Positions 52,836 to 58,803 of a stretch of DNA of 64,000 bases are shown here, one piece after another (the stretch's first letter is position 1; every line of letters starts with the position of its first letter). Both the position numbers and the translations under genes were made by a program. Where the stretch lies: the IMG/VR virus record IMGVR_UViG_3300034198_023063, positions 16,758 through 80,757 of that record, one strand, 5' to 3'. This stretch comes from a virus. The notes beneath the pieces are model-generated. The model saw only the letters and a list, made by a program, of their open reading frames with translations. It was not told the DNA's origin and made no database searches.

Positions 52836-52865
52836 AAAAAAACCTACCTATTGTTATAGGTAGGT
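52836..52865 (-). terminator. rho-independent terminator
   Basis: 10-bp stem ACCTACCTAT/ATAGGTAGGT followed by a U-tract on the - strand. Confidence 0.75.
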
Positions 52866-52896: not shown

Positions 52897-53199
52897 TTAT
52901 AGGACATCAGCTTCGTCGAGCACTGGCTCTGGCTTAGCGATCTTTTTGCTTTCGTGTTTAACAGGCTGGGCGGAATTCGCATTATCTTCAGACTTCTTCT
53001 CCGAAAGATATATCCTGAAGTCCGGAGCCTTATCCGTCTTCTTATCCTTGTTGGAAAAAATGACAACGTCAATTTTCCCCTCCAATGATGTCTGGATATG
53101 GCCGGTCATATATTTCTGGCTCTTATCTTTGCTGAGTTTAGTCCATAATGCACCAACCTCGCGTCTGTTCCACTTGTTTTCGTTTGCGTTCTCGTTCAT
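52897..53199 (-). CDS. DUF736-like protein
   Basis: EVGALW.K...Y..G...VIF.NKDK...APDFRIY. Confidence 0.65.
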   Translation of the reverse strand: MNENANENKWNRREVGALWTKLSKDKSQKYMTGHIQTSLEGKIDVVIFSNKDKKTDKAPDFRIYLSEKKSEDNANSAQPVKHESKKIAKPEPVLDEADVL

Positions 53200-53206
53200 T
53201 CAATAT

Positions 53207-53235
53207 AATATGGGTCAAAGACTTACAAAAGTCAA
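53207..53235 (-). promoter_or_regulatory. leaderless promoter TTGACT-N17-CATATT
   Basis: ATG 53199 follows the -10 box after 7 nt. Confidence 0.7.
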
Positions 53236-53843
53236 ACAAAATCGACAAAATCTTTGCTCGTAACTTTATTTTTCAAGAAAATTCTTGTCTTTTCGTGAAG
53301 ATTGATTGCTGTTTGAGTGCTAACCCCAAGTTTTTTGGCGATAGAATTCCAAGTAGCCAGCTTCTCCTCTCCTGAGAAATACCTAAGCTCATACACCTTT
53401 TTTATCCTTTCATCTTTGAGAGAAGACAGCAGAGAATTTAAATACTCAAATGTCTCATTGTTTTTATCAAAAGATAATACAATATCCTTGTTATTAAAGA
53501 AATCTATTTTATTATCCTCAGAAACTATATATTTCTTGTTTGAGTTAATATAATTCAAAAAATGATACTTGACGCAGTTGCAAAACCAAGTTGAAAACTT
53601 CGTTTTCTGCTTCGCATCGAAAGATTTTACTGCTTTATAAAGAATAAAGTCCTTCTCAGCTTTAATATCACTTATATTCATTCCAGCCCTCATCAAGGCT
53701 GAAGAATATTTCTGAACTATCGAGTAGTAAAAGTTATCGTATCCTTTTGATAGAGATACGAAACTATCGTTACAGTTAAGATCTTTAATTTTCTTTATTA
53801 ATCTTAACTCATCCTTGTTAATATTGTTTTTTACTTTAGCCAT
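53232..53843 (-). CDS. phage sigma70-family RNA polymerase sigma factor
   Basis: Region 2 'LYKAVKSFD...KFSTWF'; region 4 HTH 'VYELRYF...TWNSIAKKLGVSTQTAINLH'; AAAGGA SD upstream. Confidence 0.85.
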   Translation of the reverse strand: MAKVKNNINKDELRLIKKIKDLNCNDSFVSLSKGYDNFYYSIVQKYSSALMRAGMNISDIKAEKDFILYKAVKSFDAKQKTKFSTWFCNCVKYHFLNYINSNKKYIVSEDNKIDFFNNKDIVLSFDKNNETFEYLNSLLSSLKDERIKKVYELRYFSGEEKLATWNSIAKKLGVSTQTAINLHEKTRIFLKNKVTSKDFVDFV

Positions 53844-54279
53844 AGTGTTTTCCTTTTAGACATTGGAAAACAGCCATCGCCTTTATAACTTTTCCCTGAG
53901 TTGGCTTTTAAGAAATAGCAGGTCAACTGAAATTGTTAGATTTCAGTTTATTTAACCCAATCCTACCCGCTTCAGTCATCGCATCCCCGGCTTTAGTGAG
54001 TCCGTGTAGCTCGCGACTAAGATTGGCTATTTTCTGCTAACTGTTTACGGTTGACTTTTTTTTCGACACAGCCATCGCCTTTTCCCTTGAGAGGATTTAA
54101 GTTTCTAGCAGTTTTTCACAGGGGCCTTTAGGACGCCGCTTCTCCCGAACTAACGCTGGGATTTCTCCCAACCGCCTGTGGTCTTTTTACGGGCTTGTTG
54201 TCTCTTACGAGTTTTAAATGGGTTTCCCCAAGTGAGCATGGTTTTGCTCTAGCTACCACCAACACCGCACAGTAAGTTA
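53844..54279 (-). ncRNA. putative large structured ncRNA / 5' leader of the sigma factor gene
   Basis: Has its own promoter with no start codon after it; GC-richer than flanks; multiple helices and GNRA tetraloops; duplicated 15-nt motif. Confidence 0.65.
53870..54082. repeat. exact 15-nt direct repeat ACAGCCATCGCCTTT (53870-53884 and 54068-54082)
   Basis: Read directly; both copies have additional shared flanking blocks. Confidence 0.9.
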
Positions 54280-54285
54280 AAAAGA

Positions 54286-54313
54286 ACAATGATCCGTTTC
54301 CCTTGAAAGTCAA
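54286..54313 (-). promoter_or_regulatory. promoter TTGACT-N16-CATTGT driving the non-coding leader
   Basis: Same class as the other promoters; predicted +1 near 54279. Confidence 0.6.
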
Positions 54314-54314
54314 G

Positions 54315-54722
54315 TTACTTCTGCAAATCTTTTGGCGAAACTTTAGATGCAATAAATATTAAATTTTTAATATCTTTTTCCGTTATATTTTTCGGATCGC
54401 TCTTTTCGGCTTCGTTTTGGAGAACTTCGCAGACGTTATTTATTACACTCGAAATTCCAGCAGCAAGAAGATAGTTGAGTTCGATTTGCTGAGAAAATGC
54501 CTCTAGCGACTTAAATAAAATCCAGTAATCAGATCCTCCAACTGAACAGCTTCTGAGCAGACCAGAAGTTTCCATATCCTTCAACGCACATCTTAAAGCG
54601 GCTTCGTCTTCCTCTTCGTTTTCTGTAACCATTACGATTTCTTTAAAATGGGTTTTTAAATTTAAAACAGTTTTTTTGTTGAAAAACTCATTGATTAACT
54701 GATAAGCATCTAAAATAGTCAT
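54315..54722 (-). CDS. hypothetical protein (possible winged-helix N-terminus)
   Basis: 135-aa ORF preceded by TTGATT-N16-AATACT, 6 nt before the ATG. Confidence 0.7.
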   Translation of the reverse strand: MTILDAYQLINEFFNKKTVLNLKTHFKEIVMVTENEEEDEAALRCALKDMETSGLLRSCSVGGSDYWILFKSLEAFSQQIELNYLLAAGISSVINNVCEVLQNEAEKSDPKNITEKDIKNLIFIASKVSPKDLQK

Positions 54723-55847: not shown

Positions 55848-56023
55848 ACGACATTAAAATTCAAATAAACAAAAAACTAATTGGCAAATCAGTTAAGGTT
55901 TTAGATGAAGGTTTTGAATGGATTGGCGAAGTTGTAGATGTTAGAGACGAAGAGTCTTTCGTTGTTTCTAACGGAGAATCTTTATCTGTTGTCGATATTT
56001 TTAATATAAGATCTCTCGATTAG
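55844..56023 (+). CDS. 59-aa ORF absent from the ORF track, Sm/SH3-like small beta-barrel
   Basis: ATG 55844 overlaps the upstream stop; MNDIKIQINKKLIGKSVKVLDEGFEWIGEVVDVRDEESFVVSNGESLSVVDIFNIRSLD*. Confidence 0.7.
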   Translation: MNDIKIQINKKLIGKSVKVLDEGFEWIGEVVDVRDEESFVVSNGESLSVVDIFNIRSLD

Positions 56024-56030
56024 GTGTAAT
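56024..56030 (+). promoter_or_regulatory. GTGTAAT motif (candidate late promoter)
   Basis: 8 nt before ATG 56039. Confidence 0.45.
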
Positions 56031-56038
56031 AAACAAAT

Positions 56039-56242
56039 ATGCCATTACCTAATCCAAGAAAAGGCCAAGACCAAAACGCGTTTATGTCTAAATGCATGGG
56101 AGACGAAACAATAAAGAAAGAGTTTCCCAATCAAAAACAAAGAATAGCCGTTTGCTTGAGCCAATTTAAGAGGAAAAAAGCTACAGCTTCCGAAGACACA
56201 GATTGGGACAGCATCTTCGACGAAGATTTCATTTTATTTTAA
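56039..56242 (+). CDS. small phage protein (MPLP.P...F..KCM...EFP...QR.AVC motif, often associated with head genes)
   Basis: Motif recalled from phage head-related proteins. Confidence 0.65.
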   Translation: MPLPNPRKGQDQNAFMSKCMGDETIKKEFPNQKQRIAVCLSQFKRKKATASEDTDWDSIFDEDFILF

Positions 56243-56243
56243 T

Positions 56244-56281
56244 AAAAAAAGAGGCGCGTTTTTCAACGCGCCCTTGTTTTT
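56244..56281. terminator. bidirectional rho-independent terminator
   Basis: GGCGCGTT/AACGCGCC stem flanked by A- and T-tracts, between convergent genes. Confidence 0.75.
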
Positions 56282-56290
56282 AAATGAATG

Positions 56291-56515
56291 TTAACGCTTT
56301 CCGGTGTTTCCTGAATTACCGGCACTTCCGCCCTTTCCGACATTGCCAGTAGAGCCTCCGTTACCGACATTTCCAGTAGAGCCTCCCTTACCGACATTTC
56401 CAGTAGAGCCTCCTTTACCGACATTACCAGCATTACCAGCGGATGATGTATTGCCGACATTTCCGACGTTTCCAGTCTTAGCTGCGGCCTTTTTTTGCTT
56501 TTTTGTCTTACTCAT
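56291..56515 (-). CDS. 74-aa Gly-X-Y repeat peptide with basic N-terminus
   Basis: ATG start; ~20 triplets, nearly all starting with Gly; 27-nt repeat encoding GNVGKGGST, with most differences between copies at third codon positions. Confidence 0.7.
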   Translation of the reverse strand: MSKTKKQKKAAAKTGNVGNVGNTSSAGNAGNVGKGGSTGNVGKGGSTGNVGNGGSTGNVGKGGSAGNSGNTGKR

Positions 56516-56560
56516 AACGTAATATATTAAACTAACTATTCTAAAAATCTAAAAAAAATC

Positions 56561-56591
56561 TTGACTTTTTTATTTCGGAGAAGCTCATTAT
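56561..56591 (+). promoter_or_regulatory. promoter TTGACT-N19-CATTAT (atypical spacing)
   Basis: GTG 56596 follows after 4 nt. Confidence 0.45.
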
Positions 56592-56595
56592 TAGT

Positions 56596-58511: not shown

Positions 58512-58727
58512 ATGGATAAAATTGACATCATTTTGAAAACTTGCGACTTTTATAAAAAAGAATGCAAGAAAGTATTAGCCGAAAGCATAAAATGCAAAAC
58601 TGTAAAAGAAAAGAAAGACAACCTAGTAAAATTAAAAACCCTAAAAGCTAAAATAATATTTGAAATTGAGCAAATAAACAAAATAATAAAAGAATCACAA
58701 GACGGGGATGAGTGGAAAGATGGCTGA
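58512..58727 (+). CDS. hypothetical coiled-coil protein
   Basis: 71-aa Lys-rich ORF; its last codons lie inside the tRNA. Confidence 0.55.
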   Translation: MDKIDIILKTCDFYKKECKKVLAESIKCKTVKEKKDNLVKLKTLKAKIIFEIEQINKIIKESQDGDEWKDG

Positions 58728-58803
58728 GTGGCCTAAAGCGCGGGTTTGCTAAACCCGTGAACTTTAATCGGTTCCGAGGGTTCGAATCCCTCTCTTTCCG
58801 CCA
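58714..58803 (+). tRNA. tRNA-Ser(GCT)
   Basis: Acceptor stem GGAAAGA/TCTTTCC, G discriminator, encoded CCA; anticodon arm CGGGT-TTGCTAA-ACCCG; long variable arm; T arm GAGGG-TTCGAAT-CCCTC. Confidence 0.95.

Follow-up and report, generated by a model that had tools for sequence, protein, structure and literature searches.

Few known bacterial or phage RNAs are as large and complex as the one described here, and the earlier examples, namely RNase P, the group I/II introns, tmRNA, OLE, GOLLD and ROOL, are all biochemically unusual. Several of the large orphan RNAs of the GOLLD and ROOL kind have been associated with tRNA genes as well as with phages or prophages. The nut sites of lambda and the put sites of HK022, which span 15–70 nt, lie in two separate operons just downstream of early promoters. 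6S RNA is a rod-like, long and irregular duplex whose central bubble resembles an open promoter. Autogenous operators, such as those of T4 gp32 and regA or the leaders of ribosomal-protein genes, measure 30–150 nt and are bound by the regulated gene's own product. In the dCas12f–sigmaE systems of RNA-guided transcription, found on the chromosomes of Bacteroidetes, a guide RNA is linked to the gene for an ECF-like sigma factor (PMC13472631). GOLLD and ROOL are reported to form assemblies (bioRxiv 10.1101/2024.12.08.627333).

The DNA studied here is a 64,000-nt stretch (the window) of a phage genome assembled as a single contig of 80,757 bp. Comparison with related sequences establishes that it codes for an RNA of ~410 nt belonging to a family not previously described (Table 1). 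This RNA lies in a 470-base intergenic gap between two minus-strand genes, one for a phage sigma factor (start at 53843) and the other for a conserved 135-aa protein (end at 54315). As the original prediction, made from the sequence alone, had noted, this gap is richer in GC than its flanks (0.45–0.46 versus 0.29–0.37); its description as the only large gap in the window is roughly right, a second stretch free of long ORFs being present at 55848–56595. The latter contains a terminator and a small Gly-rich ORF. In the window, all three types of stop codon occur in every frame of the gap, and no reading frame is conserved across it in the window and 19 relatives: the longest stop-free runs span 47–91 codons and differ in frame and strand from one relative to another. 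A hidden small ORF or a gene using an alternative code can be ruled out, because no frame is kept open in the relatives.

Table 1. Features of the RNA locus and its flanks (window coordinates)
Feature	Position	Strand	Details
Conserved 135-aa gene	54315-54722	-	ends 2 nt ahead of promoter; residues 1-78 predicted winged helix
Host sigma-70-type promoter TTGACT-N16-CATTGT	54286-54313	-	-35 TTGACT 54308-54313; -10 CATTGT 54286-54291
Structured RNA, ~410 nt	53868-54279	-	predicted start to end of M2 hairpin
P1/P1b, long-range helix closing domain 1	54037-54276	-	CUUACUGU (54269-54276) / ACAGUUAG (54037-54044); GCGGU (54264-54268) / ACCGU (54047-54051)
P2 hairpin GAGCA/UGCUC	54234-54249	-	compensatory changes; absent in distant clades
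P3 hairpin GGGG/CCCA, GAAA-type loop	54219-54230	-	compensatory changes
P4 hairpin CUC-GUAA-GAG	54202-54211	-	compensatory changes
Likely pseudoknot CCCG/CGGG	54144-54193	-	CCCG (54190-54193) / CGGG (54144-54147, P5b loop); pairing possible in all sequences
P5 CACAGG/CCUGUG	54117-54180	-	54175-54180 / 54117-54122; three-way element enclosing P5a and P5b
P5a, GAAA loop	54157-54170	-	within P5
P5b	54133-54156	-	within P5
M1, three-tier hairpin	54068-54111	-	a1 CUGCUA (54106-54111) pairs b-box; internal loop GAAA/GCGA; CUU/AAG; apical CUCAA loop
b-box 1, GGCGAUGGCUGU	54068-54079	-	3' strand of M1
Domain 2, two stacked helices, core and hairpin	53926-54026	-	D2a CCAAUCUUA (54018-54026) / UAGGAUUGG (53957-53965); D2b UCGC/GCGG
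Domain 2 invariant core	within 53926-54026	-	AGCUA..ACGGACU..AAAGCCGGGGAUGCGAUGACUGA
Hairpin D2e	53926-53947	-	4/8 pairs with double changes
M2, three-tier hairpin	53870-53921	-	a2 CUGCUAUUUCUU (53910-53921) pairs AGGCGAUGGCUG
b-box 2, GGCGAUGGCUGU	53870-53881	-	identical to b-box 1
Linker to sigma start codon	53844-53871	-	GUUUUCC (53865-53871) can pair GGAAAAC (53847-53853), covering AAGGA Shine-Dalgarno
Phage sigma factor gene, 203 aa, group-4-like	53232-53843	-	Pfam Sigma70_r2 E 2.5e-5; PHROG sigma factor families
First downstream intrinsic-terminator-like hairpin	52842-52865	-	10-bp stem then U7; likely transcription-unit end

The same prediction had called the element an undescribed, large, multi-domain structured RNA, and a search of the whole window with the 4227 models of Rfam 15 (including GOLLD, ROOL, OLE, HEARO, raiA, 6S, tmRNA, RNase P, riboswitches and group I/II introns) agrees that it is undescribed: at the gathering thresholds the sole match is a tRNA at 58714–58800. 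Relaxing the cutoff to E<=10 over 53600–54600 gave six noise matches and no family; the 3' end of the RNA is touched in this noise only by a group I intron (12.4 bits versus 50; 53758–53922, mostly over the start of the sigma gene) and by rli37 (53830–53888). Neither the region nor the sigma protein was matched by blastn and tblastn in 50,697 deposited phage genomes, and the phage's DNA polymerase has only <32%-identical matches among deposited phages; since these offer no close match, they furnish neither a cultured relative nor a clue to the host. The RNA goes unmentioned in two 2026 preprints on intergenic RNA discovery, and fragments of it may figure among the 10,000 candidate viral RNAs of PMC10690425.

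Relatives are nevertheless numerous in environmental sequence collections. The sigma protein led to three IMG/VR contigs in which the gap recurs at ~90% column identity, and two conserved words of the RNA retrieved 20 viral and 24 metagenome contigs, which make up a set of 28 distinct sequences of 64–100% identity. The family was extended by a sigma-profile search, then nhmmer, and then a covariance model, R1, of the conserved 5' core (P4-P5-P5a-P5b-M1), thereby reaching phages whose sigma factors are only 38–46% identical. A motif taken from the RNA only (GCCCGTAAAAAGAC, 25–50 nt, TKCGGGR) picked out 44 viral contigs, mostly new. Together these place the RNA in ~65 IMG/VR and 24 metagenome contigs from at least three clades, some of which may be the same DNA (one contig, L252, is the full copy of the partial L124). 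On the minus strand of the window R1 scores 188 bits (54048–54214; E 6e-37), as against 44–78 bits in the distant clades. Scanned with the RNA motif, 185,579 species genomes gave 17 matches, in bacterial genomes, versus ~28 expected by chance; none of the 17 fits R1, and neither a copy in a prophage nor a hint of the host emerged. Searching viral contigs by 14-mers was discarded, having returned chance matches only, among them the false positive L122, a Gly/Asp/Ser repeat protein. Nucleotide identity to the relatives is higher in the RNA (72–82%) than in the coding sequences of the sigma factor (65–75%) and the upstream gene (59–61%).

Folding of the single sequence is not significant (z = −1.37 sense, −1.16 antisense) and hence uninformative, so the case for an RNA rests on comparison with relatives. 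The original prediction had looked to homologs for conserved, covarying helices, and these are present at both depths of the family: RNAalifold on 20 close-clade sequences proposes 80 pairs and detects compensatory double changes in 35, and in the R1 core alignment (63 copies, 42 distinct sequences) double changes affect 24 of the 31 pairs. In a structure curated to 93 pairs, four of which make up a pseudoknot, 95.8% of cells are canonical, a level that none of 500 shuffles attains, versus 87.6% in shuffled alignments and 35–49% when the partners are slid by 1–3 columns. In the close clade it has 35 pairs with double changes versus 22.1 when shuffled, and 154 cells with double changes versus 43.7, a level reached by none of 500 shuffles. 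For the R1 core, 89.6% of cells are paired as against 35–48% in slid controls, a percentage (unlike the diversity of pair types) that is inflated because the alignment was fitted to the model. Compensatory changes affect all seven pairs of P1, for which the register in the window was read by hand, and 9 of the 13 pairs of D2a and D2b; across the 42 distinct sequences, double changes are seen in 6/6 pairs of P5, 5/5 of P5a and 3/5 of P5b. G-U pairs are frequent and fit only a transcript of the minus strand. On this comparative evidence, the element is a conserved and heavily base-paired RNA of two domains, with ~90 pairs and GNRA loops.

About ten helices had originally been paired by hand, and seven of them are backed by covariation: GAGCA/UGCUC, UGGG-GAAA-CCCA, CUC-GUAA-GAG, CACAGG/CCUGUG, UGGGA-GAAA-UCCCA, CCAAUCUUA/UAGGAUUGG and AACUGAAAU/AUUUCAGUU. 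The other three have to be redrawn. In UGCGG-UGUUG/CAACA-CCGUA, the partner is invariant while the 5' segment UGCGGUGUUG varies; this segment covaries instead with 54037–54051 as P1/P1b, and CCCG would form the pseudoknot. The second, CUGCUA/UAGCAG, fails in that the UAGCAG partner is unconserved, CUGCUA pairing rather with a b-box (see below). Likewise, AGAAAAUAGC/GCUAUUUCU is broken by G>A (4 of 20 aligned sequences) and U>C changes, whereas a helix with the b-box accommodates both, G-U becoming A-U and U-G becoming C-G. The pseudoknot is likely real but thinly supported, by one double change, C-G to U-A in the relative L152, at otherwise invariant positions.

The RNA bears two three-tier hairpin modules, M1 and M2, that share a 3' strand, the b-box, of 12–16 nt. 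In the window its sequence, GGCGATGGCTGT at the DNA level, occurs at these two sites and nowhere else in the 80.7-kb genome. The two b-boxes of a phage are identical or differ by one mismatch in all 39 readable copies from a table of 41, and a search of 29 additional distinct sequences for exact direct repeats spaced 150–260 nt apart always gave the b-box as the longest, at 13–16 nt. Between phages the b-box differs, with at least 13 versions in the family, including GGCGATGGTAG, GGCAAATGGTGGA, GGGTGATAGTGT, GGATAAGCAGTCA, GGCTGACAGTCAA, GCTGGCAGTTC and GGAAGGAAGAAGTTAA; in another phage, for instance, it reads GGAUAAGCAGUCA as against GGCGAUGGCUGU in the window. The 5' strands shift in step, such as from CUGCUA to CUACUA in both modules, and the outer stem of M1 is rebuilt from clade to clade while still being paired (CUGCUA/UGGUAG, UGUUAG/CUGACA, GCCAG/CUGGU and GCU/AGC).

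Local hairpins alone would not demand such identity of the two b-boxes, which therefore calls for an explanation. We consider three: a single sequence-specific partner may read both, the modules may have to pair with each other, or gene conversion may act over short patches. Wholesale gene conversion is disfavored by the conservation in all phages of the differences between M1 and M2, namely GAAA versus UUG and the length of the loop. Identity within a phage combined with divergence between phages is the pattern to be expected of twin sites for one phage-specific partner. The b-box words have no other copies and no enrichment elsewhere in the genome, which argues against their acting as a guide for a genomic target or mimicking some recurrent promoter or operator. 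Reading by hand also eliminated an ECF-type −35/−10 pair, since the spacings in M1 and M2 differ, and leader peptides starting from an AUG inside the b-box, as their lengths are unconserved and the AUG is missing in several clades. A switch based on the alternative pairing of b1 with a2 is not favored either: such pairing would be knotted with P1 and presents no obvious energetic frustration; because b1 equals b2, it is also indistinguishable from the local hairpins.

Upstream of the RNA lies a promoter that the original prediction had already assigned to it. Its class (TTGACW-N16/17-CANNNT) is enriched in the window, with 12 copies versus 2.95 expected and none of 100 shuffles reaching 12. 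The −35 box and its spacing to the first helix are retained in all relatives, and near-consensus promoters such as TTGACA-N17-TATACT occur in the distant clades. The first helix of the RNA begins 9–10 nt past the −10 box, and the start of transcription probably lies near 54279, 2–3 nt ahead of that helix. Between the RNA and 52842 the minus strand of the window contains no terminator, and the sole further downstream promoter of the class is at 53207–53235, close to where the sigma gene ends. With neither a terminator nor a promoter of this class separating it from the sigma gene, the RNA would be the 5' part of the sigma mRNA, the two most simply forming one transcript; the view that it is cotranscribed with the sigma gene thus appears sound. 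In the window only 25 nt separate M2 from the ATG of the sigma gene. The pairing in this linker that would cover the Shine–Dalgarno sequence was seen in the single-sequence fold of the window, and an equivalent GUUUCC/GGAAAC pairing exists in L097 and L252 and is absent from the other subclades; being restricted to one subclade, such a sequestering hairpin is not a feature of the family.

The gene neighborhood is strongly conserved. The order of 135-aa ORF, RNA and sigma gene is found in 28 of 28 close-clade loci, in which two bases separate the end of the upstream gene from the −35 box, and the sigma gene begins 25–45 nt past M2; the window has the same synteny on one strand. Among loci detected by the RNA motif alone, profile searches place the 135-aa family upstream in 38 of 40, and the sigma gene is downstream in all those with enough flank. 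In most of these loci a P-loop dNMP kinase of ~210 aa (Pfam DNMK) stands between the RNA and the sigma gene, which follows the RNA directly in three of them, as in the window; the distance from the motif to the start of the downstream ORF is nearly constant, mostly 382–397 nt. Genes for a dUTPase and ribonucleotide reductase are also found in the neighborhood. Two loci depart from this arrangement: in L269, ~300 extra non-coding bases precede the sigma gene, and in L274 a tRNA-Gly comes 14 nt after M2 and is followed by a fresh TTGACA promoter, whereby the RNA is uncoupled from the operon. Given the intervening kinase in most loci and the tRNA and promoter in L274, the RNA is better described as the leader of a sigma-containing operon than strictly as a leader of the sigma gene.

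The 135-aa protein has no match in Pfam or PHROG, and its 14 homologs are all unnamed and free of Pfam domains. Its AF2 model (pLDDT 86.8) aligns with the winged helices of MarR, PadR, BlaI, Fur, Z-alpha/Z-beta and histone H1 (VIA-align Z 7.5–9.0; rmsd 1.7–3.0 Å over 62–75 residues), the Foldseek E values being weak (0.03–0.1). Hence, the model predicts that residues 1–78 form a winged helix, a common fold that does not in itself prove a function.

Taken together, the covariation, apparent co-transcription, gene linkage, twin modules and presence of a candidate partner lead us to favor, tentatively and just short of holding it probable, the interpretation that the RNA acts in cis as the leader of the sigma operon and that a factor specific to the phage binds its twin modules. 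Under such a scheme, a host sigma-70-type promoter would drive an early operon in which the RNA is transcribed ahead of the sigma factor and sets in cis the amount or timing of the sigma factor (and the kinase). M1 and M2 would be the likeliest control points, their b-boxes serving as twin recognition sites for one phage-specific partner, for which the neighboring winged-helix protein is the obvious candidate, by analogy with the action of lambda N on boxB in nutL/nutR. As M2 ends 25–60 nt before the downstream start codon, its occupancy or refolding could alter ribosome access or read-through, although how binding would be turned into output is conjecture. That the RNA might gate the sigma factor or serve as the early-to-late switch, as the original prediction suggested, is likewise conjectural, and the comparisons speak neither for nor against its being bound by the sigma factor itself. 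Several observations weaken the cis-leader interpretation: the gene directly downstream is that of the sigma factor in some clades and of the kinase in most; L274 is uncoupled and L269 has its 300 extra bases; the Shine–Dalgarno-sequestering hairpin is limited to one subclade; and ~400 nt with a pseudoknot far exceed the needs of known protein-operated leaders. The twin-site element of the proposal is likewise weakened in that gene conversion over short patches might equally maintain the identity of the b-boxes, and the candidacy of the partner in that position alone ties the winged-helix protein to the RNA. Winged helices usually bind DNA.

The excess of size and complexity bears on an alternative that we regard as a real possibility, if some distance from probable, namely that the RNA is a stand-alone, ornate molecule cut from the early transcript and acting in trans or as an RNA-only or ribonucleoprotein assembly, as has been proposed for GOLLD, ROOL and OLE, its adjacency to the sigma gene reflecting only a shared early timing. 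The number of helices, the pseudoknot, the GNRA loops and the long invariant single-stranded blocks would suit such a molecule, as would its better conservation than both flanking genes, the variation of the downstream gene by clade, and the closed domain created by P1 joining the 5' end to an internal segment. In L274, moreover, RNase P would define the 3' end of the RNA at the tRNA-Gly that immediately follows, before the new promoter. However, most loci have no terminator or clear processing signal after M2, the downstream start codon lies at a near-constant distance, all ~90 contigs have the RNA within the winged-helix/sigma block, and it has no sequence or structure in common with GOLLD or ROOL.

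A bolder reading, which we consider unlikely as it stands, would make the winged-helix protein, the 410-nt RNA and the sigma factor a self-contained device for reprogramming transcription, with the RNA as an active component rather than a passive leader. The RNA might then be, for example, a scaffold or gate, with one or more phage proteins reading the twin hairpins to release, load or time the sigma factor. If true, this would constitute a new RNA-dependent control of sigma usage, with the b-box as a phage-specific “address” in at least 13 versions.

A metabolite or ion riboswitch, perhaps a tandem one, that tunes the operon for nucleotide metabolism and the sigma factor to the state of the host is improbable. 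The position as a 5' leader, the invariant purine-rich junctions and pseudoknot that could make a pocket, the two similar modules reminiscent of tandem aptamers, and the nearby genes for the dNMP kinase, dUTPase and ribonucleotide reductase are all in keeping with it. Yet known aptamers are unmatched, no conserved terminator or sequestering helix offers an expression platform, and the RNA is two to three times bigger than most riboswitches. The modules, moreover, differ from one phage to another yet change together within each, contrary to what a conserved ligand pocket would show, and this change of sequence from phage to phage makes a classical metabolite riboswitch unlikely for them. Least probable of all, and very improbable, is a DNA-level element, in which the b-boxes would be operators of the winged-helix protein (acting by roadblock or looping), or the region would be an origin or iteron, with the RNA folding incidental: the exact 12–16-bp direct repeats ~200 bp apart, beside a gene for a predicted protein of a typically DNA-binding type, and the palindrome TGACAGTCA in the b-box of L274 agree with it, but compensatory changes extend over ~90 pairs, the frequent G-U pairs are meaningful on one strand only, the a-boxes change to maintain the b-box pairing, the b-box words are absent elsewhere in the genome, and the remaining 350 nt would be left unaccounted for.

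Set beside the described systems, the cis-leader that we prefer resembles each in part. Like 6S RNA, it could bear on the usage of sigma factors or RNA polymerase; a 6S-like decoy of the polymerase was nonetheless rejected, since the Rfam 6S models are unmatched and the covariation-supported fold is multi-branched and two-domain, and nowhere else in the genome do the b-box words resemble promoters. With the dCas12f–sigmaE systems it shares a non-coding RNA genetically linked to a sigma factor gene, but here the carrier is a phage, the neighbors are the 135-aa winged-helix protein and a kinase with no Cas12f/TnpB-like gene, and no guide-like segment matches the genome. Autogenous operators are likewise structured 5' leaders, bound by a protein of the phage or host and setting downstream translation, whereas the present RNA is far larger and its only candidate binder is encoded upstream. 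The closest parallel to the twin modules comes from lambda nutL/nutR, with boxB and N, and from HK022 putL/putR, in which each phage has two near-identical hairpins in its early transcripts that differ between related phages. The position behind an early promoter fits these as well; unlike them, both copies here lie within one folded RNA of 410 nt, an intrinsic terminator is absent between the RNA and 52842, and neither an N-like protein nor a boxA was found, nor were there downstream terminators that would have to be read through.

In its architecture, the RNA is most akin to GOLLD and ROOL (and also to OLE, HEARO and raiA), with its hundreds of nucleotides, many covarying helices, pseudoknot, GNRA loops and invariant junctions, as well as its occurrence in phage DNA from lakes and oceans and the tRNA directly after it in L274. 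It differs from GOLLD and ROOL in length (~410 nt versus 580–800 nt), in matching no Rfam model, and in its one fixed block beside a sigma factor, its apparent read-through into the next gene and its twin co-evolving modules. It belongs with the large orphan structured RNAs of phages, a loosely defined class, but has nothing detectable in common with any member. The fixed three-gene context, which includes the sigma factor of the phage itself and a protein predicted to bind nucleic acids, provides an experimental handle; the compact size suits probing and cryo-EM, and at least 13 matched b-box variants can be swapped for specificity. Its study could reveal how widespread uncultured aquatic phages time the hand-over from host to phage transcription. 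To our knowledge, no other large RNA has a fixed partnership with a sigma operon or twin hairpins under concerted evolution.

In the viral contig L274, a tRNA-Gly(GCC) (L274:426-501) begins 14 nt past the last hairpin of the structured RNA, and the promoter for the dNMP kinase gene (TTGACA-N18-TATTAT) comes after this tRNA; the RNA and the tRNA are a separate unit of their own in this phage. In L322 (855-870), a representative of the third clade, a run of seven U residues stands directly 3′ of the hairpin of M2, the second of the RNA's twin modules, and looks terminator-like; this run is absent from the other clades. In L296 (820-866) and its relatives L281, L292, L294 and L313, M2 is joined to the kinase start codon by a conserved, AU-rich stretch of 45-60 nt, with the conserved letters GAAGAUUGUUAGAUUUAAA..UAUAAUAU-AUG, that contains neither a Shine-Dalgarno sequence nor a promoter at leaderless spacing. 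L269 has large insertions in the RNA itself, and about 300 additional non-coding bases (L269:1180-1490), within which the motif ACGGAACC(U/C)UAACGAAA is duplicated, separate it from the sigma-factor gene.

The scan with the pattern of the b-box, the 3′ strand shared by the twin modules, also matched L122:8190-8490, a false positive in an unrelated viral contig; the protein encoded there consists nearly throughout of Gly-Asp/Ser-Gly-Cys/Tyr repeats.

Within the window, the second GC peak is accounted for by a small ORF and its adjoining hairpin. Further, as a promoter lies just ahead of the DUF736 gene, the latter can be transcribed with or without the sigma factor.

Additional features of the window
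Feature	Position	Strand	Remarks
DUF736 gene	52897-53199		100 aa; directly after the promoter
Promoter TTGACT-N17-CATATT	53207-53235	-	near sigma gene 3′ end; same class as the RNA's promoter
Terminator hairpin	56253-56272		strong, bidirectional; GGCGCGUUUUUCAACGCGCC
Small ORF	56291-56515	-	65-74 aa; GC-rich, Gly-rich repeats; adjoins the terminator hairpin
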